From an uncultured Bacilli bacterium (GTDB taxonomy: Bacteria > Bacillota_I > Bacilli_A > RF39 > UBA660), in assembly GCA_944332555.1 (NCBI GenBank), contig CALVKF010000003.1, forward strand, positions 1 through 62,437: 62,437 nt of DNA, read 5' to 3'. The position numbers were made by a program, and so were the translations under genes. The notes under the pieces are model-generated. The model did no database searches and was not told where the DNA came from. It was given only the letters and a program-made list of their open reading frames with translations. Positions 32,145-62,101 of the stretch are shown here, piece by piece. The first letter of the stretch is position 1. Each line of letters begins with the position of its first letter.

Positions 32145-33800
32145 TTACTTTATTTTCCAAATTTGTGCTTTATTATCAAAAATTATTTTATTTTCGTCTT
32201 TTAATATTTTAATTAAATATCTCACTCTATTAATTTTATTTTTCCTATTCATAAAATTGGGTAATTTAGAATCTAATAGTTGTATAATATCATTTCTTGT
32301 AGCTCCATTAAATTTTTTTATATATTTTAAAATTAATTCTTTATAGAAATCATTACTTAATCCAACATTTAAAATATAATCTTCTTTATTATCAGTAAGT
32401 TCTGCAATTGAAGAAGATATATAAATATTTGGGTATCTTCCTTCAACTAAATCGGATTCCTTTAAATGTTCAAATTGTTCTTTAGTTATAAATAAGTTCT
32501 TTTGAACTCTATCTAATAACACTACATCACTTAAAGAAAGTTTAGTTTGTTCAAATAACAATTTACTATATTTTTCATCAATTATCGTTCCATATAAAGT
32601 TACTTTAACTCTGTTTTGTTCACTAAAGTCATAGTCAGGCATTGGAAAATATTTATCCCTTTGAATTTTATATATTCTTTTAATACCACTACCAGCTGTA
32701 TCAATCATATTTAAATTAACCATTGCTTGAACTAAAAATGGATTTCGATAAAATGGCGATGAAAATCCATTTTCTAATACTTTATTAATATCTTCTGGGA
32801 TAAAATTTCCTTCATTTATAAACATTAGTTTATCCTTAAACTCAACTACATTAATCATCCTACTTAAGCTATAATTTTGATGTACAATACAATTATTAAT
32901 TAATTCATGAATAGTAAATGAATCATATTGATAAATTTCAATTGGGAATAAAGAACTATCATCAACTATATATCTATATCTTAAATTTCTTATTTTAGAA
33001 TATAAATTTTCTATATTTACTAAAAAGGGTATACCAAAATGTTCATAATCAATTATATTATCTTCACCAGCTAATTTCCAAGTCATTCTTGGAGCATTTC
33101 CCTCAATTAAGTAATCATAATCATTTTTTCCCAACAACAACATTGCTGTATTTGTAATTTTTCCATTTAATGTTAATTTAGCCTTATTTAAAAATTCTTC
33201 ATCGCTTAACTCGTCTATTTCATTAGCTATTTCTTTTCCTTCATGCTTTTTCTTAAATTGTTCTCTTGCTAACAAAATGGCTTTTGAATCTAAATTATTA
33301 ATACTTGCTGATGATATAATTTGCCTTGACCAATCATATATGGCAGTATTTCTAATTTGTTCAATTTTATTTTGACTTAACGGTTTAAGCGATTCACCAA
33401 CTCTACCATAAGCAAAACCTTTCCAGCTTATTGGAATACCAACAGCTGCCGGTACTTGAAACATAATTACTCTTTTACCATTGATAACTAAAGGATAAAT
33501 TTCTATAAAACCTATGCTATCGGTCGTATTATCCATAATTTGTTTTTTAACATGATTAAAATTATTATCAGGACAATATCTAGTATTTGTAAATTCATGA
33601 GTTTTATCATCAACTCCAAATACTATCCAACTATATTGCTTATTTCTTAAAGTTGCTTCATTACCTATAGCTGAAAAATATTTTCCAAGTTTATCAATAT
33701 CAAAATTATTTTCTGCTTTTTTGAACTCAACACATTCTGTTTCATAATTTTTAATTAACATTTCTAAAATAGATACTAATTCTTCTTCTGTTTTATACAT
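32145..33800 (-). CDS. AlbA_2 (Schlafen-like DNA-binding) plus HATPase_c_4-type putative regulator (RecG-like annotation class)
   Basis: N-terminal ETECVEFKKAENNF...YFSAIGNEATL is typical of AlbA_2. The middle and C-terminal regions (IVHQNYS..., GSGIKRI) fit an ATPase-like fold. Start set to ATG 33800, 6 nt after GAGGTG. Confidence 0.7.
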   Translation of the reverse strand: MYKTEEELVSILEMLIKNYETECVEFKKAENNFDIDKLGKYFSAIGNEATLRNKQYSWIVFGVDDKTHEFTNTRYCPDNNFNHVKKQIMDNTTDSIGFIEIYPLVINGKRVIMFQVPAAVGIPISWKGFAYGRVGESLKPLSQNKIEQIRNTAIYDWSRQIISSASINNLDSKAILLAREQFKKKHEGKEIANEIDELSDEEFLNKAKLTLNGKITNTAMLLLGKNDYDYLIEGNAPRMTWKLAGEDNIIDYEHFGIPFLVNIENLYSKIRNLRYRYIVDDSSLFPIEIYQYDSFTIHELINNCIVHQNYSLSRMINVVEFKDKLMFINEGNFIPEDINKVLENGFSSPFYRNPFLVQAMVNLNMIDTAGSGIKRIYKIQRDKYFPMPDYDFSEQNRVKVTLYGTIIDEKYSKLLFEQTKLSLSDVVLLDRVQKNLFITKEQFEHLKESDLVEGRYPNIYISSSIAELTDNKEDYILNVGLSNDFYKELILKYIKKFNGATRNDIIQLLDSKLPNFMNRKNKINRVRYLIKILKDENKIIFDNKAQIWKIK

Positions 33801-33907
33801 AGTAAACACCTCAAATACATTATACAGTATTATAAGAATTTTTGCATTATAATTCTATTAAAAAATTCCAATTTGTTACAATTCACAGTCTAAATAATTT
33901 TAAACTC

Positions 33908-34145: not shown

Positions 34146-35345
34146 TTAACAGAATTTATTTTCCTCTACCCATTTCATTATATCATCAATTAACTTTTCT
34201 TGATACCCAGTTCTTTTAGTTTTTAATATTTCATCTTTAATTATAAATAATTCCTCACATTTAATATTATCTAATTTTTTTATTCTACTATCACTTATAA
34301 TTTTATCTGAAATAGCTTTCTTAAAATAATATTCATCATAAAAGATTAATTTTAAATTAGGATATTTTTCTTTTAACCTATCGGCAATTAATAACCCTTC
34401 TGGATCAAAATCCCCATTATAATAAAGTTCATGATTATCTAGTTTATTAATTAAAGAAAATACTGCTAAATTAGGATTACCATTAGTTACAATTATTCCA
34501 ATATTAGCATCCATTTTAATTAAATCATTTAATATTGAAGGATTTTCAACTATTAATATTTTTTTATTTAACGAAAATACATTATCTAATTTATTAATAT
34601 TATTTAAATTAAGAATAATTGATTCTTTATTATCCGCTAATATATTTAGGTAATTATTACCTCTTAAATTAAATGTTAATACAGTATTAGAAAAACTATC
34701 AATAATTATATTTACAGAATTTAATAATTCTATTTTAAAAGTTCTAGTATTTATGTAATCAACATTTTTATAAATTGCTAAATACTTTAAAAATATATTA
34801 GAATTTTTAGTATCTAAATCAAAATAATGGGGATCTTTAGCAATACTCGCCGCAAATATACTGAGTAATGTAGGATTTTTAGGTAAATTTAATATTGCTT
34901 TAATTACATTATAAAATAATTCTTTGTCATTATTTAATAAATAAATTATTTTTTTATAATTTTTAAGTATTAAATAATCTATAAATTCATTATTAAAAAA
35001 ATTTCTAAATTCATCTATTAAAACATCATCTTTATTTTTCTTTATATTCTTTAATTCCTGTTTAGTTATAATATCTTTATATAAATAATTAATAATATCA
35101 TAAATATTATAATCACTATATTTACTTTTTTCTAAAGATTCATTTATATCACTAATTTTTATTTTATTAATACCTATATTTAAATATTTATTATTTCGAA
35201 GAAACATTTCTATTTCTTTTATTTCAGATTCATTAGTAATATTTACATTAACTATTCCCTTTATATCTCCCTTTTTTATATATTTTTCTTTAATTGCCTC
35301 AAATAAAGGAGATAATTCTTTGGTTTTAAAATACTGTAGATTCAT
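34146..35345 (-). CDS. jetD: Wadjet JetD-like protein (DUF2399/Toprim-type nuclease subunit)
   Basis: It is the fourth gene of the operon. The C-terminal domain carries ELYYNGDFDPEGLLIADRL, a Toprim-like DxD. Start chosen at ATG 35345, giving a 20-nt overlap with jetC; the track start at 35393 is unsupported. Confidence 0.75.
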   Translation of the reverse strand: MNLQYFKTKELSPLFEAIKEKYIKKGDIKGIVNVNITNESEIKEIEMFLRNNKYLNIGINKIKISDINESLEKSKYSDYNIYDIINYLYKDIITKQELKNIKKNKDDVLIDEFRNFFNNEFIDYLILKNYKKIIYLLNNDKELFYNVIKAILNLPKNPTLLSIFAASIAKDPHYFDLDTKNSNIFLKYLAIYKNVDYINTRTFKIELLNSVNIIIDSFSNTVLTFNLRGNNYLNILADNKESIILNLNNINKLDNVFSLNKKILIVENPSILNDLIKMDANIGIIVTNGNPNLAVFSLINKLDNHELYYNGDFDPEGLLIADRLKEKYPNLKLIFYDEYYFKKAISDKIISDSRIKKLDNIKCEELFIIKDEILKTKRTGYQEKLIDDIMKWVEENKFC

Positions 35346-38300
35346 ACTCTTCATACTCCATATCACTAGTAACCAAATTCTTTTTAGAACCATTCCAAAT
35401 ATAACGAATTACACTAATAACATCCGACTCTGGCATATGATAAAGCTCAGCAATAGACAACTTTTTAACACTTTCATAATCACCCCATAACATTTGACTT
35501 GTTAAAATATAATCTAAATCAAGTTCACTTAAAATACGGAATGAATCAAGGATATTCACATCATCTACTCCTGCAAAGGCTTCATCTAAAGCAATAACTC
35601 TTGGAGCATCACTTCTAGCAGAATTATATTTAGCATTAATCCCCGCAAATAAAGGGATATACATAGCAATAGCTTTTTCTCCACCACTAAATTTACTAAA
35701 TTCTTTATCAGTTAATTCTTTTTTATCTTGATTAGCTCTTTTTACATAAAGTTTAAATTGAAACCATTTACGATAATCTAAAACATTTTTAATTATTTCA
35801 ATATAATTAACTTCCCCTTTTTCATATTTTTCTTCTTCAGCTCTAATTTTACTTCTAAAGTGCTCTACTATTCTTTGTTGATCACTTTCACTAACCATTT
35901 GGGCACTAGCATTAAATATATCAACAATTTCTTTTGTATCTAACTCTTCTTCCGCTTCCCTATCTTTTCCTCTCCATTCTAAAGAAAAACTAAGGCCACT
36001 TGAAGTATTCATTCGCTCCATAATACTCTTAACTTCCATAACCCATTTATTACTGCTTTTAATTTTTTCTCTAATACTATCACCAACATTATTTAAAAGT
36101 AAATCTTCAAATAACTTTCTATCTTCAATACTAAGTAGTTCTTTATTACTTTCCAATTCAATAAAAATATTATCACTAAGTTCTAATATATTTATACTTT
36201 TACCACTACTTGCTCTAAACAATAAATCCTTTCTTTTAGCACTACTTAATATTTCTTTTATTTTTTCTTGTAATTTTATATCTTCTGTATATTTTATTGC
36301 CTCATCTTCTAAATCACTAAATAAATCAATTCTTTTACCACCATAATTTTGCAACTTAAATAAGTGATCACTAGTTCTATCATAAAATGCACTATTAGCA
36401 TCATCTATAGTTCTATTTTTCTCTAATTTAAAATTTTTAAACCATTCATTAAAATCTTCAATTGGTTCTTGATATCTACTATAATGTAAATTATATTCTA
36501 AATCAAAAATATCTTTTAAAACTTTATTAATAATTATTTCTTCATTCAAATTTTCTTGTTCATCCTTATAATCTTTTTCTTGATGGAACAATTCATTTTC
36601 AGCAGTTGCTCGTTCTTTAATTATCTCATTATTTCTATTTTCTAATCTACTTTCTTCTTCTTTTAAATTTTTAATAGTATATAAAATATCTTTATTTTCA
36701 TCTTTATTAAGTTCTTCTTGTATTTTATCTATTTCTTTTATTTTACTATTTAACAAAGCTTCATTATTATTAGCACTAGTAATCATATTATCTATTGATT
36801 CTTCTAAATCTTCTATGTTACTTTTAATACTATCTATAATATCTTGTTTATGTAAAATATTATCATTTTTAGTTTGCATTTTATTAATATTATCTAAAAG
36901 TTCATTTAAATTATTTAATGATTCACTTAAATTATTAGAATTTACTTCTACATTAAAATCATATTTATTTAATAAAATATCTTGTTCTATTTTTTTAACA
37001 TCATCTAAAATAATTGCTATATTTTCTTTTTTACTATCAATAATTTCTTTAGAACTATTTATCTTTTGTTCTATATTTTTTATACTGTCTATTAGCATCA
37101 AATATTTATCAAAACTTATATTTTGATTTTTTTCATTTTCTAATATATTTAAATTACTTAAAATATTTTGATAATCATTATTAAAATCATCTATATTATT
37201 ATTAATTATAGTTATTTCATTATCTATATCTTGAGTTAATTTATTTATATAATTTTCTCTTTCTTTATGACCAATATATTTTAAATCATAATCACTAATA
37301 ACTTTACCAGTTATAATACCCATACTATAATTGCCAGATTCATCTATATATACATCATCTATATTACTACCAATACTATTTAAAATATCAGTAACTTCAT
37401 TAACATAATCTTTATTAATTATCTTGAAATATTTTAAAATAGAATTATTTTTATTTCTTAAATTACCAAAAGTTTTTGGTAAAACCAAAGAATTATTTTT
37501 AATAACTAAAGTTTGTAATAAACCAAGTGCTCTTAAAGAATTTTCAATATTTTTTCTAATACTAATATCTATACCATCTCTAAATTCAATCAGTTCATAT
37601 AAATATGCACATTCTATACCTTTAGATTTAGCATATTCCCCTCTTTCATAATCATTAATATTACTTTCAAATATATTTTTTATATTTAATTTTTGTTCAT
37701 TTAAAACATCTAACTTACCTTTTTCCTTTATTAGTTTATTGTCAAGAATATTTTTAGCTTTATTTAAATCATTTTTAATATCAAAATAAACTTTATTAAA
37801 TATTTCTGTAACTAAATAGATATTATTATCCATTTTATTTAAAATATTCTGTATATCACTTATATTATCATCATTTAACTTAAATACTTGATTATTTTTA
37901 GTATTATTAAAAATAACCATTAAATTTTGAATTTCTGAAACCATGCTTTTTGATACAATTATTTTTTCATCATTAAATTTAACAATATTATCTTCTTCTT
38001 TTGAAATAACATCTTCTAGTAATTTAGAACTTTCTAAAAGTTTATCTTTTTTATTTACAAATTTAAATAAATTATTTATTATATCTTTTTTAGATTTTAT
38101 AATATCTGATATTCCTTTATCTTCAATTTTATCTTTAAATAAATCACTAAAATTGCTATTTTCTAAATTGTATTTAGCTTCATCATAATAAATATTATAT
38201 TCTCTTTTAGCAATATATAATTCATCTTCAGTGCTCTTTAAAGCAATATTTTTATCATTAATTTTTTCATTGCATTTATTAATAATTTCTTTATCTTTAT

Positions 38301-39351
38301 CCAATTTTTCTTTTAATTCATCTACATCTTTTTCTAAGCTTATCTTTTTATCTACTAAAGAAACTATATTATTACTATCTAACTCTTCACTCTTAGATTT
38401 AATATTATATATTTCTAAATTTATTTCTTTTTGTTCAATATCTAATAAGTTAATATTTTCTTTTAAATTTTCTATTTTTGTTTTTATATCTTCAATATTC
38501 TTTTTACTTATTTTTAACTTATCATTAGATTTTATATAATTACTTGCTTTATGATAAAGATAAACATCACTATAATCATAAAAACTGTTTTTAAGTAAAT
38601 TTAAATTATTATATTCAACTGTTAAATCATCTATTTTTTCTTTATATTGATTCATATTTTCAATAGAATCAGACATTTTTTGAATATCAGCATCACTAAT
38701 TGGATCAAGTACACTTGCTAAGATATTAACAAGTATAGTTGGTTTATATTCTTTAGATAATTTAGGACTTCTAAGTTGCAACATTAAATTTATTAATTCC
38801 GAATACATACTAGCATTTTCATAGCCAAATAATAATCTATTAACCATATTTTTATATTCTTTTTGGCTAGTTACAAATTCTCCACCAGTACCAACAGCAA
38901 CCTTACATTCATTTTTAGATAATGGTATTTTATTTAAATGATCTTTATAAAGTAAAAATCCATCCTTTATTCTCCGATTATCTGTTAAAGCAAAGCCCCA
39001 AAAATCCATACTTCTATTTTTTACTGCTCTAAGACCTATTCCTATAGTTAAATATTTATTTATATCCTTTCTAAAAAACTCCATATAAATATAACTAGTA
39101 TTTTCAGGCATATCACTATTACTAGGTAATACATATTCTTCTATTTTTCTATCTCTGCTACCAAAGGTATCAAATCGCTCAGCATTTTTATTGCCATCAA
39201 ATAAAAGAGGAAATGCTGAAACCATCGTAACCGTTTTACCAGCACCATTTCCTCCGCGAAGAAGTAATTTGCCATCACAAAAATGAAATTCTTCTTCATC
39301 ATATAACCAATAATTTAAAAATCCAATTTTATTAATTTTATAACGCTCCAT
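35326..39351 (-). CDS. jetC: Wadjet JetC-like SMC-family ATPase
   Basis: Walker A GGNGAGKT near the N-terminus, about 1000 aa of coiled coil, signature FSGGEKAIAM and Walker B RVIALDEAFAGVD near the C-terminus. Start ATG 39351 forms a TAATG overlap with the jetB stop after GGGAGGAATA. Confidence 0.85.
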   Translation of the reverse strand: MERYKINKIGFLNYWLYDEEEFHFCDGKLLLRGGNGAGKTVTMVSAFPLLFDGNKNAERFDTFGSRDRKIEEYVLPSNSDMPENTSYIYMEFFRKDINKYLTIGIGLRAVKNRSMDFWGFALTDNRRIKDGFLLYKDHLNKIPLSKNECKVAVGTGGEFVTSQKEYKNMVNRLLFGYENASMYSELINLMLQLRSPKLSKEYKPTILVNILASVLDPISDADIQKMSDSIENMNQYKEKIDDLTVEYNNLNLLKNSFYDYSDVYLYHKASNYIKSNDKLKISKKNIEDIKTKIENLKENINLLDIEQKEINLEIYNIKSKSEELDSNNIVSLVDKKISLEKDVDELKEKLDKDKEIINKCNEKINDKNIALKSTEDELYIAKREYNIYYDEAKYNLENSNFSDLFKDKIEDKGISDIIKSKKDIINNLFKFVNKKDKLLESSKLLEDVISKEEDNIVKFNDEKIIVSKSMVSEIQNLMVIFNNTKNNQVFKLNDDNISDIQNILNKMDNNIYLVTEIFNKVYFDIKNDLNKAKNILDNKLIKEKGKLDVLNEQKLNIKNIFESNINDYERGEYAKSKGIECAYLYELIEFRDGIDISIRKNIENSLRALGLLQTLVIKNNSLVLPKTFGNLRNKNNSILKYFKIINKDYVNEVTDILNSIGSNIDDVYIDESGNYSMGIITGKVISDYDLKYIGHKERENYINKLTQDIDNEITIINNNIDDFNNDYQNILSNLNILENEKNQNISFDKYLMLIDSIKNIEQKINSSKEIIDSKKENIAIILDDVKKIEQDILLNKYDFNVEVNSNNLSESLNNLNELLDNINKMQTKNDNILHKQDIIDSIKSNIEDLEESIDNMITSANNNEALLNSKIKEIDKIQEELNKDENKDILYTIKNLKEEESRLENRNNEIIKERATAENELFHQEKDYKDEQENLNEEIIINKVLKDIFDLEYNLHYSRYQEPIEDFNEWFKNFKLEKNRTIDDANSAFYDRTSDHLFKLQNYGGKRIDLFSDLEDEAIKYTEDIKLQEKIKEILSSAKRKDLLFRASSGKSINILELSDNIFIELESNKELLSIEDRKLFEDLLLNNVGDSIREKIKSSNKWVMEVKSIMERMNTSSGLSFSLEWRGKDREAEEELDTKEIVDIFNASAQMVSESDQQRIVEHFRSKIRAEEEKYEKGEVNYIEIIKNVLDYRKWFQFKLYVKRANQDKKELTDKEFSKFSGGEKAIAMYIPLFAGINAKYNSARSDAPRVIALDEAFAGVDDVNILDSFRILSELDLDYILTSQMLWGDYESVKKLSIAELYHMPESDVISVIRYIWNGSKKNLVTSDMEYEEYESTVF

Positions 39352-40505
39352 TATTCCTCCCAAAAAGATAACATTTCAATGTTTTCCTCTTCTTTTTCTT
39401 CAATTTTATCAAACATTCCTTCATACATATAAGTAATTGGATAGATTAATACATTATCTTCCATTATTTTTAGCATTTTAAAAGATTCCATATAATTGCT
39501 TATTTCTATACAAAATTTCAAACTAGATAATTCTCTATATTTTTTAGAAAAATATTTATAATTTTCTTCATATACATTTTGTAATATATTATTAAAATTT
39601 GTTTTACTAATCACATTAGTATTATTTTCTTCTATATAATTTCTCACATAATGGCAAACTAAAAGTATAATATCAGTTATTGATTTATTTAAATTAGGAA
39701 ATATATCATCACACTCATCAGTACTTACTACCGCCATATCTTTAACAAATATTAGTTCTCCTTTTAAATACTTTTCTACATCCTTTGATATATTATTACG
39801 CATATTGCGTAAATACAAAAAAGCATCATTTCTAAGATCTAATAAAGGCACCAGTGGATATAAAAATAAAGCTCGATAGGCAATTATCCTTTTATATTCT
39901 AAATTATCAAAAGTCATTAATTCCTTATCAATAAAATCTTGTGCCTCACTACACTTAAATACATCAAATTTAAAATTACGAACTACATAATGAGATAAGG
40001 TAGTATTTTCATATAATGCCTCAGCCCTTATATCATCTGAAAAATCTAAACTTTTATCTCGAAGACGAATTATACCAATAGATGTTGCATATTTTAAAAC
40101 ATCAACTAAACTCTTACGATCTTTATACTTAGTCCAATCTGGTTTTATATCACCATTAATACCCGCTAGAATATTATCTATATACTCGGTTAAATTAGAT
40201 AATACGAATTGTTCATCTAATCCTTTATCTTCTAAAAACATTATTAGAATAATATATAAAACATAATCTAATTCATCATCAAATTCATCTATTTTATACA
40301 CATCATCTAACCATATTGGAACCTTTTCCATTTTTATTAACTTATTATTAGCAATTACATCACACCCCATTTTATTAGCGATTTCTCTTATATCAGTTAT
40401 TTTACTTTTGATTTTATAAAAATCACTATCATCTTTAGTAACCCATAATTTATTTAAAAGACTACTAAATTCTTCTAAATATTCTTCATTCACTTCTATC
40501 ACCAA
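39351..40505 (-). CDS. jetB: Wadjet JetB-like kleisin-associated subunit (DUF2398-size class)
   Basis: Assigned from its position between jetA and jetC and its 384-aa size. The start is uncertain: TTG 40505, GTG 40502, or GTG 40493 after GGTGA. Confidence 0.65.
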   Translation of the reverse strand: MVIEVNEEYLEEFSSLLNKLWVTKDDSDFYKIKSKITDIREIANKMGCDVIANNKLIKMEKVPIWLDDVYKIDEFDDELDYVLYIILIMFLEDKGLDEQFVLSNLTEYIDNILAGINGDIKPDWTKYKDRKSLVDVLKYATSIGIIRLRDKSLDFSDDIRAEALYENTTLSHYVVRNFKFDVFKCSEAQDFIDKELMTFDNLEYKRIIAYRALFLYPLVPLLDLRNDAFLYLRNMRNNISKDVEKYLKGELIFVKDMAVVSTDECDDIFPNLNKSITDIILLVCHYVRNYIEENNTNVISKTNFNNILQNVYEENYKYFSKKYRELSSLKFCIEISNYMESFKMLKIMEDNVLIYPITYMYEGMFDKIEEKEEENIEMLSFWEE

Positions 40506-41958
40506 ACACTATCTTTAAATCAGGCATATGAAACACACCATCATCACTAATTAAATCAATATATTCATCACTATTTTTAACTACTATATATTTAACACCA
40601 TGTTCACTATCATTTACATATTTATTTTTATTTATTCCATTACTAATTAATGATAATATAAATCTTCTTTCAAATTGTGAAATTTTTTCTAAATTTTTCA
40701 ATTCTATAAAACCATTTTTAATATATTGATTTAATATTTCTTGCTCTCTTTTTCTTATAGCTAAAATCGCTTCCAATTGTTCTTGTTTTGCCAGTGTTTT
40801 ATCAACAATTGCTCTTTTAGTAATATTTTCTTTTATTTTTCTACTATGACTTTTAACTTCTATCCATAATGGATCTAACAAAAGAGCATCTATTCCAATA
40901 TCATCAGTTTGTTTTTGAATCTTAGAAAAATGCTTGATACTAGAAATACCAAAAGCAACTGCAGCTATATTTTCTGATTCTCTCAAAGATTTAGAATTAC
41001 AAAACATTGCTAATAAATGTCTATATTCTTCTTTGCGATTAATACTATTTTGTTTTAATTCCATTATAGCACTAACATTTTTAAGTATTTTACTAATAAT
41101 ATCATTTATAGCATTTTTAAGTCTCATACTTTCAGATATCCCAGAATCATTTTTAAACCAATGTATGATACTATGCCATTTTCCTAAATTAATTTCTCTT
41201 AAATAATCAAAATCAAAATTAGGTTCTAAGTTAGGAATGTTCTTTTGATAAGCTATTAAACTATCCATTAATTTTTGTTCAAAATTATTTGGCAAATTAT
41301 CTAATAAATCAACAATTTTTAAATTATAATTTTGAAAACCTACAACAAAATCATTTAAGTATTTAACAATTGAATTTTTATAAGCTAAAAATTCCGCTGT
41401 TTTCATTAAATCTTCAGTTTTAGCTTCATTAAATGTTTTTAGAAAATCTTTATAGTGTTCATTTAATGTTGTAAAATTATAGTTTAATTCTTCAAAATAA
41501 TCATGTATATTACTAATATCTTCTTCTTTTTCTAAATTAATTATTAACATACGAATTTTTTCAAACAATTTAGGTTCTAAAGATGATCTTTTAACTTGCA
41601 AACTTTCAAGACGCATTACAAATCTTTCGATTTCAATCGCATAATCAGTCATCTGATAACGAAATTTTTTATTCTTAAATTCATCAATTGTAAGTACATT
41701 ATCTGTATCTTGAAAATAAGTTAAACTTTGCCATAAAACCAATTGATTTAAATCTTGTTCACATAACTCAAGTGAATAATTCGCAAAATCTATATTATCT
41801 TTAAGTTCATTATATACTTGTTCTTTATAAAGCCAATAATCAAGTTTTTCATAATGTTCAAAAAATATTCGCATTATTGGTCGATATCTATTAGTATTTT
41901 CAACATTTAAATATTTAGTTTCTAATATTTGTTTAGTTAATTTATCATTTATTTCCAT
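40486..41958 (-). CDS. jetA: Wadjet JetA-like subunit (DUF2397-size class)
   Basis: First gene of the four-gene operon, 490 aa. N-terminus ...NTNRYRPIMRIFFEHY resembles the family N-terminus as I recall it. Confidence 0.65.
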   Translation of the reverse strand: MEINDKLTKQILETKYLNVENTNRYRPIMRIFFEHYEKLDYWLYKEQVYNELKDNIDFANYSLELCEQDLNQLVLWQSLTYFQDTDNVLTIDEFKNKKFRYQMTDYAIEIERFVMRLESLQVKRSSLEPKLFEKIRMLIINLEKEEDISNIHDYFEELNYNFTTLNEHYKDFLKTFNEAKTEDLMKTAEFLAYKNSIVKYLNDFVVGFQNYNLKIVDLLDNLPNNFEQKLMDSLIAYQKNIPNLEPNFDFDYLREINLGKWHSIIHWFKNDSGISESMRLKNAINDIISKILKNVSAIMELKQNSINRKEEYRHLLAMFCNSKSLRESENIAAVAFGISSIKHFSKIQKQTDDIGIDALLLDPLWIEVKSHSRKIKENITKRAIVDKTLAKQEQLEAILAIRKREQEILNQYIKNGFIELKNLEKISQFERRFILSLISNGINKNKYVNDSEHGVKYIVVKNSDEYIDLISDDGVFHMPDLKIVFGDRSE

Positions 41959-42277
41959 TTGTTTCTCCCTTGCCTAATATATTACAAAAAACCAAACAAA
42001 AATTCAAGTATTAATTGCAATATTAGTCCTTTTGCTTTTATCGGTTCTTCTAATGATTTACTCCCTCTAATACCCAAACATATCTTCCCACTTTATATTC
42101 ACCACATAAATACTCCTCATAATGATTCTTTTTTATACCTTCTACAAATTCTTTTATCATATAAATACAATTGACTAACCTACATTTACAAATAATCATA
42201 CCATAAAGTTCATACAAGTAAAACTTGAAAAAAAATCAAAACAATAATATAATATATTTAAGAAAGGAGTTAATAAT

Positions 42278-42562
42278 GTGCTAGAACATTTAAATAATGT
42301 AATTAAAGACATTTACGAAATAAAAAAAACAAATCAATATAATTTAAAAAATACTGATATTTATGTATTAGAAAAAAAAATAATCGAAATAACTGAAAGT
42401 TTAAACAGAAAAATTGACTTAAAAGAAGTAAAAACAATATCTGAAATGATTTATCAGCTTAATTTAGATAATACATTTTCTGAATTAACAGATCACATTA
42501 GCAACGAATTTTATGCTTTTGAATTTCTGCTAGAACAAAATATTAAGGAGGGAAAAATATAA
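42278..42562 (+). CDS. Hypothetical 94-aa helical protein (GTG start)
   Basis: AAGGAG RBS 8 nt upstream of the GTG. It is 1 nt from the next gene. No family recognised. Confidence 0.55.
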   Translation: MLEHLNNVIKDIYEIKKTNQYNLKNTDIYVLEKKIIEITESLNRKIDLKEVKTISEMIYQLNLDNTFSELTDHISNEFYAFEFLLEQNIKEGKI

Positions 42563-42563
42563 C

Positions 42564-43151
42564 ATGGCCGGAAAAGACAAATATGGATACAAACATGAAG
42601 ATGGTCACTATTCAAAAATGACCGGTAAGGGTTCAAGTTCATCATATTCAATATATGATAAAAATCCATCAGAAAAACATCATTCTGGAACTCACGTGAA
42701 TATTAATTTAAGCAAAGGAAAAAATGGATCTATAGTGGAACATGGTCCAGATGGAAAAACAATTAAAACAGATATAAGCTGTTATTTAACTACGGCTTGC
42801 ATGAAATTTTACCAAGATAATTTCAATGACGATTGCTATGAATTAAAAGTATTAAGATGGTTTAGAGATAATTTTGTAACTGAAGAAGACATATTACATT
42901 ATTATGAAGTTGCTCCTATAATTGTTGAAGCCATTAATAGCGAAGAAAAAAGCAAATTAATTTACGATTATATCTATGATAATATAATTGACTTTTGTAT
43001 CTCAGAAATCGAAAACGGAAATTATGATGTAGCATATTCTAGGTATAAAAATAGTATATTATGCTTTGAAGAAACATTTGCAAAACCATTACTTGAGCAA
43101 AAGTTTATAAAAGTTCTTAAAAAATCTGTGCCAACAAATAATACAAAATAA
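42564..43151 (+). CDS. Hypothetical protein: Gly/Lys/His/Ser-rich N-terminal region plus a conserved Cys-containing C-terminal domain (CYLTTAC...DDCYELKVLRWFRDNFV...HYYEVAPIIVEAI)
   Basis: GGAGG RBS upstream. The C-terminal motif resembles a widespread uncharacterised domain that I cannot name. Confidence 0.65.
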   Translation: MAGKDKYGYKHEDGHYSKMTGKGSSSSYSIYDKNPSEKHHSGTHVNINLSKGKNGSIVEHGPDGKTIKTDISCYLTTACMKFYQDNFNDDCYELKVLRWFRDNFVTEEDILHYYEVAPIIVEAINSEEKSKLIYDYIYDNIIDFCISEIENGNYDVAYSRYKNSILCFEETFAKPLLEQKFIKVLKKSVPTNNTK

Positions 43152-43282
43152 TTTATTAAGAACTGTTTGAAAAGTAATATTAAATTTGCTCTAAAAGTTT
43201 CAGTGAAAAAAATTAGAGTTGGTCTCCGCGAAATAGTGGGATTAAGAAAATAGTAAAAAACACGAATCAACTGGATAATTTA

Positions 43283-43320
43283 AAAATATAACTCCAAGTT
43301 TTAATGGGGTTATATTTTTT
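43283..43320 (+). terminator. Terminator of the 42278-43151 gene pair
   Basis: Stem ATATAAC(T)CC/GG(G)GTTATAT followed by T7. Confidence 0.6.
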
Positions 43321-43334
43321 TAAACTCCAATTAA

Positions 43335-43348
43335 TCAGACGCGTCTGA
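43335..43348. promoter_or_regulatory. Perfect 14-bp GC-rich palindrome TCAGACGCGTCTGA in AT-rich intergenic DNA
   Basis: Read directly. It contains an MluI site core. A strong AAAGGAG RBS and a 17-codon TTG ORF follow. Confidence 0.3.
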
Positions 43349-43578
43349 CCAATTCAAAAAGGAGAAAATTTGTTAGAAAAAGTTAATAATAAAATAATTA
43401 AAGAAATAAACAGAGTTAGTTAATCAAACAAAAAAATAATTTAGTGTAAGATATTAATAAATCTATTTTAAAAAATCTAGTATTTGCGTAATCTACACTT
43501 TTATAAATTGTTAAATACTGATAAAAATATATTTTCTCTGAAAAACCACATAGTAATTGCAATATACTTTAATAATAT

Positions 43579-43794
43579 TTATTCTAAATTTTCATATTTT
43601 GTTAAATAAGCAATATTTATTTTATGTACAAATGTATCATAATCATCAAAATCATATTCAGCTCCACATATTGAACAAGTAAAAATTCTTTCATCAATCA
43701 CCACATTTTGACCATGAATATTATGATTAGTTTTTTCTTCTCTTAATTCACCAATTACATCTTTATCACATTTATAACAATACATTTTTTCCAT
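43579..43794 (-). CDS. 71-aa Zn-ribbon protein, truncated paralog of the N-terminus of the upstream antitoxin
   Basis: MEKMYCYKCDKDV...FTCSICGAEYDFDD versus MEKMYCFECDKDV...FTCPICGTEYDFDE, about 60% identity over 62 aa. The start lies 22 nt after the upstream stop. Confidence 0.7.
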   Translation of the reverse strand: MEKMYCYKCDKDVIGELREEKTNHNIHGQNVVIDERIFTCSICGAEYDFDDYDTFVHKINIAYLTKYENLE

Positions 43795-43816
43795 TTTATC
43801 ACATCCTTTTCAGTTA

Positions 43817-44719
43817 TTAAATTTTCAAATCCTTAGCATATTTAAAATCAATTATTTCTCCATCTTTAGTTTCAGTCCATCCCTTAAACTTATGAGACCA
43901 ATCCGACAAATCTTTAGCACTCATTCCCTTAAATTCATCAATTATTTTATCTAATACTTTTATTTCATTTTCATTAAAACAAGATAAATCAGTATCTTGA
44001 AGAGGTGCAAATAACATAGCTGAATCATCAACTGATGAAGCAAGCTTAATATAATCTTGTTTAATTAGTAAATTAAGTAAGGCATCTTGATTATTAACAA
44101 TTGGACCAAATGGTGCATGAGCATATTTAAAATTACTTATTGCTTTATTAAATAATTTATAATTTAGAAAATCAGATGCAAATAAATATTTCATCAACTC
44201 TGTTCTATTTAATATAACTTTATTAAGTATATATAAAATAACGTTTATACTCTTATAATTAATATCAACATTTATTCTATTTAATATTTTATAATATTTT
44301 TCTTTAGATAAATTCTTATTATTTTTTATTATATTATAGATATTATTTTTATTATTCAATAAACTTATATAAGTATCAAGATATTCTTTCTGCGGCAGTG
44401 ATTCGGCATTTTCATATCTTGTTATTGTTTTTTTGCTCCATCCAAGAGCTTCCGCAAATAACTCTTGAGATAAGTTTAGGGCCTCTCTTATTTCTTTTAG
44501 TTTTTCAAAACTCAAACCAAATAAATTTAAATAAGCATTATAAATTCTATAAAGCCCTTCATCAAGTTCATCAAAATCATATTCAGTCCCACATATTGGA
44601 CAAGTGAAAATTAAATCATCAACCACTACTTCTCTACCATGAATAGTATATTTTGTTTTTTTAAGGTTTACTTCACCCATTACATCTTTATCACATTCAA
44701 AACAATACATTTTTTCCAT
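43817..44719 (-). CDS. Fusion antitoxin: MqsA/YgiT-type Zn-ribbon, XRE HTH, and C-terminal DUF4065/Panacea domain
   Basis: CxxC...CxxC ribbon, HTH (LNLSQELFAEALGWSKKTITRYE), Panacea core (MKYLFASDFLNYKLFNKAISNFKYAHAPFGPIV). Confidence 0.8.
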   Translation of the reverse strand: MEKMYCFECDKDVMGEVNLKKTKYTIHGREVVVDDLIFTCPICGTEYDFDELDEGLYRIYNAYLNLFGLSFEKLKEIREALNLSQELFAEALGWSKKTITRYENAESLPQKEYLDTYISLLNNKNNIYNIIKNNKNLSKEKYYKILNRINVDINYKSINVILYILNKVILNRTELMKYLFASDFLNYKLFNKAISNFKYAHAPFGPIVNNQDALLNLLIKQDYIKLASSVDDSAMLFAPLQDTDLSCFNENEIKVLDKIIDEFKGMSAKDLSDWSHKFKGWTETKDGEIIDFKYAKDLKI

Positions 44720-44735
44720 ATTATCAAATCATTTC

Positions 44736-44926
44736 CTAACTATAATTACTTTCGTGAAATGACAAACATACCACTTTATTTCTATATGTTAATTTTATAT
44801 ATACTTTCTTACCATTAATCATTTTTAAAAACACATACATCTCTGTATTAAAATCTCTAAAAATATCACTTTTTTACATAATTTCAAAAAACTTTCTACT
44901 GCATTTTTATCTAGTGTTGATAACAT
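44736..44926 (-). pseudogene. MqsR-like toxin gene interrupted by a frameshift in an A6 run (44870-44875); absent from the ORF track
   Basis: AAAGGAGG RBS, then ATG 44926 reads MLSTLDKNAVESFLKLCKK. After a +1 A the frame gives SDIFRDFNTEMYVFLKMINGKKVYIKLTYRNKVVCLSFHESNYS*. Its C-terminus resembles the E. coli MqsR ...SDFYKSM...VYLKITVIHDVLIVSFKEK. Toxin-first order upstream of a MqsA-like gene. Confidence 0.5.
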
Positions 44927-44956
44927 ATATCCTCCTTTACGTCCTTTCGTAAATTA

Positions 44957-44996
44957 ATTATAGCAAAAAACTATATTGGTGTCAATTGTCACCAAT
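44957..44996 (-). promoter_or_regulatory. Consensus promoter TTGACA-N17-TGC-TATAAT with inverted repeat ATTGGTG-N8-CACCAAT across the -35
   Basis: -35 at 44980-44985, -10 at 44957-44962, inverted repeat at 44975-44996. It drives the mqsR-like/antitoxin operon. Confidence 0.7.
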
Positions 44997-45024
44997 TATT
45001 TTTTCAATAAAAAAAGGTCGTTTT

Positions 45025-45456
45025 TTAACGACCTCTACTTTCTTGATTTAACATATTAGCAACTAATCTTCTTATGTAATATTGATAATTCATATAAACA
45101 AAAGGTATATTGTTTTCTTCAAAATAATTAATAACTTCCATTTTGATTTCATCTGTAATTTCAATACCACCAATATTTAGCTTTTCACTTTGTAATCTTT
45201 TAAAGAAATCTTCTCTAGACAAAGTTACTCCACCAAATTTAATAGCAAAAGCTCTTATTGAACTTCTTTCATGTTGCGTCAAACTAACTCCATTATCTCT
45301 TAAATGAATAATTAAATTGCGAATATTAATATCACATATTTCATAATAATCAATGATATCTGCTTTTCTAATATTACCATCTTCAGTTTCTATACCATGA
45401 TCAATCATTTCACATAAGATATTTTCTACTACATTTAAATCACTTATTTTTTGCAT
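45025..45456 (-). CDS. Hypothetical 143-aa protein
   Basis: Start set to ATG 45456 after GAAGGGGGAAAAT. A terminator hairpin GGTCGTT/AACGACC overlaps the stop codon. No family recognised. Confidence 0.6.
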   Translation of the reverse strand: MQKISDLNVVENILCEMIDHGIETEDGNIRKADIIDYYEICDINIRNLIIHLRDNGVSLTQHERSSIRAFAIKFGGVTLSREDFFKRLQSEKLNIGGIEITDEIKMEVINYFEENNIPFVYMNYQYYIRRLVANMLNQESRGR

Positions 45457-45542: not shown

Positions 45543-45875
45543 TTAACAACATCTGTCAAAGACATTTTCACAAACATTTTCTTCGCAGCAAGTATAGGCT
45601 GGTTCATAAGTATGTCTATAAACATGATGATTTATAATTCTGGTGTTACATGGAATAATGTGTGGCACATTGTAGCAAATATATCTATGACATACTCTTT
45701 CCCTAGGACATTCATAAATTGGCATGCAGCCACAACCATAATTCATTCCCATATCCATCCCCATATTCATGTTCATATTCATACCACTAGAACAAGTAGT
45801 ATTTTCTCCCATTGCTTTTTTATCATAAGCCTTAGCATTTACATCTTCATAACTTTTTTCATTAAAATAATTCAT
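45543..45875 (-). CDS. cotD: CotD-family inner spore coat protein with a Met/Asn/Gly repeat and a Cys/His-rich C-terminus
   Basis: VPHIIPCNTRIINHHVYRHTYEP matches the CotD IVPHIHP.HTT.VNHH pattern. Start set to ATG 45875, 8 nt after AAAGGAA. Confidence 0.75.
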   Translation of the reverse strand: MNYFNEKSYEDVNAKAYDKKAMGENTTCSSGMNMNMNMGMDMGMNYGCGCMPIYECPRERVCHRYICYNVPHIIPCNTRIINHHVYRHTYEPAYTCCEENVCENVFDRCC

Positions 45876-45896
45876 AATCAACATTCCTTTCTAGTG

Positions 45897-47076: not shown

Positions 47077-47424
47077 ATAATTCTTTATAAGCCATGTTCT
47101 GTACTTTCTTACGAAAGTGGCAAATATTTATCTCCTGCAAGCAGGCCCTATTTCAGTTTGATTCCTGAAATAGAACTCCCCTACCATAATTTGGGTTTCT
47201 CACTCGTGGGGTTTACCGCGTTCCACTTAGCTTGTTTCCAAACTAACTCGTCTCTATGGCACTTTATGTTTACTAAAACCATTTGACAGGTTTCCTCAAC
47301 GCCGTTAGCCTAAGCTACCCTAGGTTATTTTTTCCCTAGGCACGAACACTACAAACATCACAGCTTGTGTGAGCATGGACTTTCCTCTACATTACAATAT
47401 ATGCAGCATTTGCCCAAGAATTAT
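47077..47424 (-). ncRNA. rnpB: RNase P RNA, type B
   Basis: On the minus strand: GAGGAAAGTCCATGCTC (P4 5' strand), GTGGAACGCGGTAAACCCC, ACAGAACATGGCTTA (P4 3' strand). P1 pairs ATAATTCTT with AAGAATTAT. It is adjacent to gpsB as in B. subtilis. Confidence 0.93.
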
Positions 47425-62015: not shown

Positions 62016-62101
62016 TGGTGCCCGAGGTCGGACTTGAACCGACATGGTATTGCTACCAACGGATTTTGAGTCCGCCGCGTCTACCATTCCACCACTCGGG
62101 C
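62016..62101 (-). tRNA. tRNA-Leu (anticodon CAA) with long variable arm and encoded CCA
   Basis: Minus strand: GCCCGAG acceptor pairs with CTCGGGC, followed by ACCA. Anticodon loop CTCAAAA, variable arm GTTGGTAGCAATACCATG, T-loop GGTTCAAGTCC. Confidence 0.96.

Follow-up and report, generated by a model that had tools for sequence, protein, structure and literature searches.

We analyzed a locus at positions 43,579 to 44,996 of a 62,437-nucleotide (nt) stretch of DNA from an uncultured Bacilli bacterium (contig CALVKF010000003.1; this whole stretch is hereafter called the window). There, the gene panA, coding for a 300-amino acid (aa) antitoxin, follows the remains of an mqsR-like toxin gene and precedes a 71-aa open reading frame (ORF) that encodes a Zn-ribbon only. 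We find that the locus very probably belongs to the published MqsR:PanA class of type II toxin–antitoxin (TA) operons and has decayed. Its toxin gene has been destroyed by a 172-nt out-of-frame internal deletion and not by a one-base slip; with codons 20–77 deleted, the window can make no toxin. The result is mainly a correction of an earlier note that had been made from the sequence of the window: the architecture it took to be undescribed is that of the published MqsR:PanA class (PMC8832971, PMC10440598), and the frameshift it described is a deletion pseudogene. The remaining interest plausibly lies in the polymorphic loss of the toxin and in the Zn-ribbon-only fragment as a candidate mini-antitoxin.

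An internal deletion in the toxin gene

Between the promoter and panA, the window holds two short ORFs in different frames, both on the minus strand (44825..44926, 33 aa; 44736..44840, 34 aa). Searches with the intact toxin of a syntenic strain (L036) identify these as the two ends of one gene (Table 1). The open frame of the 5′ remnant continues out of frame to a stop at 44825, and the 3′ remnant lies in the −1 frame relative to it. DNA alignments with L001, L036 and other relatives reveal that 172 consecutive nt, corresponding to codons 20–77 and shifting the frame, are missing from the window between ...TGTAAAAAAG and TGATATTTTT..., with the deletion junction just 3′ of an A6 run (44875..44870), between 44869 and 44868. 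The ancestral product was 119–120 aa long. A search for a second toxin copy in the 62-kb window found none.

The earlier note had read the same DNA as the gene of an MqsR-like toxin of 63 aa that is broken at the A6 run by the change of a single base and is possibly phase-variable or decayed. The A6 run and the two out-of-frame ORFs are indeed present, one added A joins the ORFs into the 63-aa product that the note quoted, and the last 24 residues of this product match the Pfam MqsR_toxin profile with an E value of 8e-4. The added base, however, restores a frame but not the gene. In the intact homologs, the same AAAAAAG string is read in frame as Lys-Lys-Glu, with an A-run of the same length, and is then followed by the 172 nt that the window lacks. 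In L029, which has the same junction, the A-run is itself interrupted by a T to TATAAAAG. We found no homologs of about 63 aa, the short database entries being gene calls on broken alleles, and the 63-aa product would be without residues 20–77 of the predicted 120-aa fold (three strands, two helices, fourth core strand gone). We therefore consider a homopolymer switch, or restoration of the frame by slippage, an extremely improbable explanation of the broken gene.

It is scarcely more credible that the deletion is an artefact of sequencing or assembly and that the organism really has an intact toxin. Nothing specific speaks for such an artefact, the window probably being derived from a metagenome assembly, and three further contigs, which stem from separate samples and were built with different assemblers (L029 and L037 from ENA, L032 from Logan), share the junction. 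L029 has private substitutions in addition, one of which is the break in its A-run. The identical junction in these three contigs, together with the private substitutions of L029, excludes assembly artefact and homopolymer phase variation alike.

Toxin loss among related loci

A scan of one genome per species returned 28 loci with relatives of the 300-aa protein (44–91% identical), almost all of them from uncultured gut Bacilli. The survey of homologous loci for intact toxins that the earlier note proposed was informative: in 23 of the 28, the panA homolog is immediately preceded by an intact ORF of 119–139 aa, which ends a few bases before the panA start. The toxin-first order that the note had read from the remnant is thereby borne out. 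These 23 loci and the syntenic L036 form a two-gene module, with an intact MqsR-like ORF immediately upstream of panA; in the window itself, the partner is a pseudogene.

The contigs that carry an identical 71-aa protein are syntenic with the window and share the gene order DivIVA, pgsA, Cys-rich protein, 143/154-aa gene, toxin, panA, 71-aa ORF, two reverse-strand genes, JetA/JetB. Within this group, L036 has an intact 120-aa toxin allele, while L030, L031, L033, L034 and L035 have a nonsense allele (TGG>TAG at Trp59) that is also found in the species representative L001. The 172-nt deletion allele is present in the window, L032 and L037, and its junction recurs in L029. In other loci, the toxin gene of L003 carries 1-nt and 8-nt deletions, that of L010 has a frameshift, and L013 keeps promoter and operator with nearly the whole toxin ORF gone. 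For L001, where the gene is split into 58 + 58 aa, we considered an alternative code with TGA read as Trp; this was rejected, the codon being TAG and the long ORFs of the window being intact under code 11.

PanA is full-length in all 27 loci that were matched over its whole length; L027 was matched only at residues 168–298. The panA DNA is identical between the intact and nonsense alleles and differs from that of the deletion allele at 6 of 903 positions. Given this near-identity, these toxin losses are recent. In sum, comparison of the loci points to at least five independent toxin inactivations, with the antitoxin and the operator still under constraint, and offers a population snapshot in which toxin decay appears to have been caught in progress. 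The general pattern of orphan antitoxins and decayed chromosomal TA loci is similar in that the toxin is repeatedly inactivated with the antitoxin ORF, promoter and operator intact. Unlike that pattern, several alleles, including an intact one, coexist here in a single syntenic strain population.

Domain architecture of PanA

PanA consists of a Zn-binding domain (ZBD) at residues ~1–65 with Cys6, 9, 40 and 43, an XRE-type helix-turn-helix domain (HTH) at ~70–125 and a Panacea domain at ~170–285. The earlier note had described the protein in just this way, as an MqsA-type Zn-ribbon joined to an HTH and a Panacea domain, and profile searches agree with it: SocA_Panacea (PF13274, DUF4065) matches residues 175–281 over the whole profile with 64.3 bits against a cut-off of 25.7 (E 2.5e-17), HTH_3 scores 47.8 bits, above its cut-off (E 1.4e-12), and the head models score just under theirs. 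The four Cys residues are invariant in 38 homologs. They form a four-Cys site in an N-terminal β-rich domain that is followed by the XRE-type HTH, the arrangement of an MqsA-type head. The AlphaFold2 model of PanA (pLDDT, the predicted local distance difference test, 91) has as its best match in the Protein Data Bank (PDB) full-length MqsA (3GN5; E 1e-4, 131–133 aligned columns). Public databases name the homologs “DUF4065 domain-containing protein”, “SocA domain-containing antitoxin” or “MqsA family antitoxin”, and in RefSeq the Clostridium plasmid homologs are named “type II TA system antitoxin MqsA family protein”.

Comparison of the window with L001 gives a ratio of nonsynonymous to synonymous substitution rates (dN/dS) of 0.14 for panA overall and 0.05 for its HTH, and panA thus appears to be under purifying selection. 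The head behaves differently from the remainder of the protein. Two diverged types of Zn-binding head, A and B, sit on near-identical HTH–Panacea bodies (L002–L005 versus the window and L001), and between types the dN of the head is 0.22–0.26 versus 0.024–0.036 for the HTH, about ten-fold. In L003 (3631–4903), a broken type-A toxin is paired with a type-B head, which suggests that modules have been swapped through recombination where the head meets the HTH. From the hypervariable head and this mixed pairing, it follows that recombination at the boundary is evidently common; the Zn-binding head is a fast-evolving, recombining specificity module of these antitoxins.

Searches of phage and plasmid collections gave only distant relatives. 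On the Clostridium estertheticum plasmid pCF008-B (L041, 1501–3022) and in L042, the gene of a 336-aa ZBD–HTH–Panacea protein, which bears the annotation MqsA family antitoxin, precedes that of a 112-aa “hypothetical protein”, the C-terminal ...VIYIKIRFYPPNEVMCISFHED of which is the motif of the toxins described here. This is the same pair as in the present loci, in antitoxin-first order and with the toxin unannotated.

The fold of the intact toxins

The earlier note was right that a dead toxin gene of the MqsR family lies upstream of panA, since the intact relatives are MqsR-like, but the repaired 63-aa product by which it proposed to recognize the family does not pass the profile search. This product reaches 20.1 bits (E 8e-4) at profile positions 72–95 only, below the curated cut-off of 26.2 bits for Pfam MqsR_toxin (PF15723). 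The intact relatives score 16.0–28.4 bits, with three of the six scanned sequences passing, and the intact form of the window’s own allele type scores 26.5 bits. PF15723 is also precomputed for most database homologs of the intact toxin.

Structural comparison points the same way. In a Foldseek search with the AlphaFold2 model of an intact relative (P0011; pLDDT 86), chains 3HI2_B and 3HI2_D of E. coli MqsR are the top two hits and the only PDB matches with E <1e-3 (E 3e-4, probability 1.0, TM-scores 0.62/0.75). The intact relatives are thus predicted to have the RelE/MqsR-type RNase fold, which the copy in the window, without codons 20–77, cannot form. The intact toxin is presumably an mRNA-cleaving RNase. 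A PDB match to 3HI2 that was obtained with a profile including E. coli MqsR was discarded as circular.

Several observations weigh against the assignment of the locus to the MqsR:PanA class. On the antitoxin side, the two models of the MqsA-type head give significant scores that fall just under their cut-offs (TIGR03830, 59.3 vs 61.8, E 3e-16; PF15731, 25.1 vs 30, E 2e-5). On the toxin side, the family profile built without MqsR matches no PDB sequence, and alignment to E. coli MqsR with hhalign gives only E 8e-4 and a probability of 24%, a distant relationship. The assignment of the fold consequently rests on the AlphaFold2 model, Foldseek and Pfam. The residues needed for toxicity of E. coli MqsR are K56, Q68, Y81 and K96 (PMC2791442). 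Of these four, only Tyr81 is clearly kept here, as the invariant Y100; Lys96 aligns with, and is replaced by, the invariant His115, while for Lys56 and Gln68 the alignments are of low confidence and pair them with variable or different residues.

Promoter and putative operator

All elements of the operon (promoter, toxin remnants, panA and the 71-aa ORF) are encoded on the minus strand. The promoter, the inverted repeat over its −35 element and the ribosome-binding site named in the earlier note are all found in the sequence. The promoter matches the consensus at 12 of 12 positions, with the −35 TTGACA at 44985..44980, a spacer of 17 nt and a TG-extended (TG-n-) −10 TATAAT at 44962..44957, and its position is kept in related loci. 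The inverted repeat, ATTGGTG-N8-CACCAAT, runs from 44996 to 44975 and forms the arms of the palindrome listed in Table 1; the ribosome-binding site of the toxin gene, AAAGGAGG, is read at 44938..44931.

In nearly all of the 27 loci examined for it (PanA identity 44–94%), the core of the palindrome, GGTGACA(A/G)TTGACACC, recurs at the equivalent upstream position, either exact or with 1–2 changes. Its arms reach 11 nt in some loci, and L029 and L005 have a matching change in both arms (ATCGG..CCGAT). The palindrome, which lies over the −35 element, looks like an operator to which the HTH of PanA may bind.

The promoter differs between allele groups. In the intact/nonsense group (among L030–L036), the −35 is TTGGCA, ~60–80 nt upstream of the toxin start, with a spacer lengthened by a 6-nt duplication (GCTATAGCTATAAT); the perfect TTGACA-17-TATAAT is that of the deletion-allele group, window included. 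An Rfam search of the locus returned no match.

Table 1. Features of the locus and its surroundings in the window
Feature	Position	Strand	Evidence or remark
panA, 300-aa antitoxin	43817..44719	-	Pfam/NCBIfam domains, AlphaFold2 model
5′ remnant of mqsR-like toxin gene, codons 1–19	44870..44926	-	tblastn with the intact L036 toxin: residues 1–19, 95%
3′ remnant of toxin gene, codons 78–120 and TAG stop	44736..44868	-	tblastn with the intact L036 toxin: residues 78–120, 98%
71-aa Zn-ribbon-only ORF (ZBD and 7-residue foreign tail)	43579..43794	-	ORF list; all four Cys kept
208-nt fragment of the “type B” panA 5′ end	43602..43809	-	from −15, ribosome-binding site included, to codon 64
Sigma-70-type operon promoter	44957..44985	-	12/12 consensus match; predicted activity
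Putative operator, imperfect 22-nt palindrome ATTGGTGACAATTGACACCAAT	44975..44996		overlaps −35; predicted HTH binding
Toxin-gene ribosome-binding site AAAGGAGG	44931..44938	-	read from sequence; conserved in DNA alignment of relatives
Intrinsic terminator of the preceding 154-aa gene	45013..45036	-	upstream boundary of the operon
JetA2	40486-41958	-	
JetB2	39351-40505	-	
JetC2	35326-39363	-	
JetD2	34146-35393	-	
94-aa gene	42278-42562	+	
195-aa gene	42564-43151	+	weak CFI-box-CTERM match

Origin and possible role of the 71-aa ORF

The 71-aa ORF starts 22 nt after the panA stop and is 57% identical to the neighboring PanA head, in line with what the earlier note had seen. Its protein agrees better with the PanA head of L002, to which 54 of 67 positions are identical. 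At the DNA level, blastn finds 43809..43602 to be 88–90% identical to the panA genes of L002–L005, versus 77–78% to those of L001 and of the window itself. Beyond 43601, no similarity of the DNA of the ORF to any panA was found (shuffle z = −1.1), and the DNA past this breakpoint supplies seven codons and a stop. The 71-aa ORF is thus a recombination fragment: part of a sister “type B” cassette that was fused to unrelated DNA precisely where the ZBD meets the HTH. Two other origins were rejected. A duplicate of the neighboring panA head does not agree with the lower DNA identity to that gene (78% vs 88–90% to L002–L005), and an apparent alignment in which the ORF ends at a nonsense codon in a decayed full-length panA fails against the shuffle test and the clean breakpoint.

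The exact 71-aa protein is found on 47 contigs, always after panA in this lineage and also with the intact toxin allele, and is absent from the 28 species-level loci. Within the lineage, the ORF has no nucleotide variation at all. Against type-B heads, its dN/dS is 0.31–0.74 (64 codons, underpowered); among full-length type-B heads, the ratio is 0.18–0.46.

The fragment could nevertheless have been put to use. The 71-aa protein may be a working stand-alone mini-antitoxin, co-transcribed with panA and binding MqsR-type toxins without an HTH or a Panacea domain. It could buffer the resident toxin and so also ease the selective pressure to which that toxin is subject, or it could shield the cell from “type B” toxins brought in by other elements. 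Such a role is plausible because the isolated ZBD has been published as sufficient, both in B. fungorum, where it neutralizes MqsR (PMC10440598), and in E. coli, where the N-terminal domain of MqsA does likewise (PMC2791442). Moreover, the ORF is intact, with its own ribosome-binding site and all four Cys residues, its break falls precisely between ZBD and HTH, and it is found beside the intact toxin allele too. Nor is it the only ZBD-only ORF with an unrelated tail: one of the others sits directly 3′ of an MqsR-like gene and is followed by an unrelated ORF. A scar of recombination would look much the same, however, with a clean breakpoint and a foreign tail, and the junction between variable head and conserved HTH is a likely crossover point in any case. 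The confinement of the ORF to one lineage without nucleotide variation, and a dN/dS that is higher than among full-length heads, if over 64 codons only, also speak against a function. We regard a working mini-antitoxin as rather unlikely, compared with a neutral scar.

A wider proposal, in our judgment unlikely too, is that stand-alone mini-antitoxins occur naturally, as the 71-aa ORF and as similar ZBD-only ORFs to which other panA clades have independently given rise. If true, such proteins would neutralize MqsR-type toxins without help from the HTH and Panacea modules, uncouple the toxin from the proposed sensor and make the toxin dispensable; its repeated decay in this lineage could be accounted for in this way. 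In a related reading, PanA may be retained after toxin loss through a toxin-independent role. The natural ZBD-only fragments offer a native setting for testing the published sufficiency of the isolated ZBD for neutralization.

On two contigs of <1 kb (L038, 179–403; L039, 347–571), an MqsR-like toxin gene is directly followed by a 71–74 aa Zn-ribbon-only ORF from a different panA clade, which has an unrelated C-terminal tail; the small ORF that comes next has no relation to panA. The arrangement resembles a natural pair of toxin and ZBD-only protein.

Proposed mechanism and known systems

In the intact relatives, we propose that one strong promoter would drive a 119–126 aa toxin of the MqsR fold and then the 300-aa antitoxin. 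If E. coli MqsA and B. fungorum PanA are a guide, the Zn-binding head would bind and neutralize the toxin, and a dimer of the HTH would act at the conserved palindrome over the −35 element to repress the operon. The C-terminal Panacea domain is the proposed sensor. In the window, loss of the toxin would leave an autoregulated orphan antitoxin.

This scheme draws on published work. For E. coli MqsA, the N-terminal zinc domain is by itself enough to rescue cells from MqsR, and the C-terminal HTH binds the operon promoter (PMC2791442). A ZBD–HTH–Panacea antitoxin of B. fungorum has been validated and truncated experimentally (Ernits et al. 2023 PNAS, PMC10440598): the isolated ZBD or ZBD–HTH neutralizes the toxin, the Panacea domain alone or HTH–Panacea does not, and the authors propose Panacea as a sensor. 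Among the recognizable partners of Panacea antitoxins, MqsR-like domains are the commonest (n=90), and an HTH is present in 343 PanAs (Kurata et al. 2022 PNAS, PMC8832971). A 2013 chapter, as cited by Kurata et al. 2022, describes DUF4065 as an alternative antitoxin to MqsR (PMC8832971). Neutralization of the toxin by PanA has been demonstrated for other PanAT pairs (PMC8832971, PMC10440598).

As judged from its published description, the B. fungorum MqsR:PanA pair of the PanAT class has the same three antitoxin domains as the protein in the window (MqsA-type ZBD, HTH and C-terminal Panacea) and likewise an MqsR-like partner in the adjacent gene, the toxin gene coming first in the intact relatives of the window locus. 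Unlike that pair, the locus in the window comes from an uncultured gut Bacilli bacterium, has lost its toxin by the 172-nt deletion and has an extra ZBD-only ORF after panA.

E. coli MqsR/MqsA (3HI2, 3GN5; Brown et al. 2009, PMC2791442) is also toxin-first and shares the CxxC...CxxC zinc site and a palindrome in its own promoter. In structure, the toxin model agrees with the MqsR fold and the N-terminal 130 residues of PanA with full-length MqsA. Sequence identity to the E. coli system is nevertheless only ~20%. In addition to the changes at the residues needed for toxicity, the toxin here is ~20 residues longer at its N terminus; compared with MqsA, the antitoxin has an extra 170-residue Panacea module, and the operator sequence differs.

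Genomic neighborhood

Some 1.6 kb downstream, the locus is followed by a complete Wadjet system of type II (window 34146–41958, minus strand; Table 1). In L001 and L005, no more than ~100 nt separate the panA stop from the start of an ORF that is JetA-like as judged from sequence similarity alone, and the cassette therefore appears to lie at the edge of a defence island. A 1.8-kb segment of the window (42016–43815) is absent from L001 and L005; it contains the 71-aa ORF, a 428-nt AT-rich spacer and the two plus-strand genes. None of the 28 related loci has a homolog of the neighboring 154-aa, 195-aa or 94-aa gene.

Next to JetD2, a 554-aa ORF (32145–33809, minus strand) has a weak PADLOC match to an Argonaute-associated SIR2 model (E 8e-6, 22 bits) and may be another defence gene. 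On the other side of the locus, a Cys/His-rich 113-aa protein with Met/Asn repeats (45543–45884, minus strand) has, as judged by eye alone, some likeness to small spore-coat proteins. A bacterial RNase P class B RNA (47083–47421, minus strand; 300.6 bits) and a tRNA at 62019–62101 fit a chromosomal Bacillota context.

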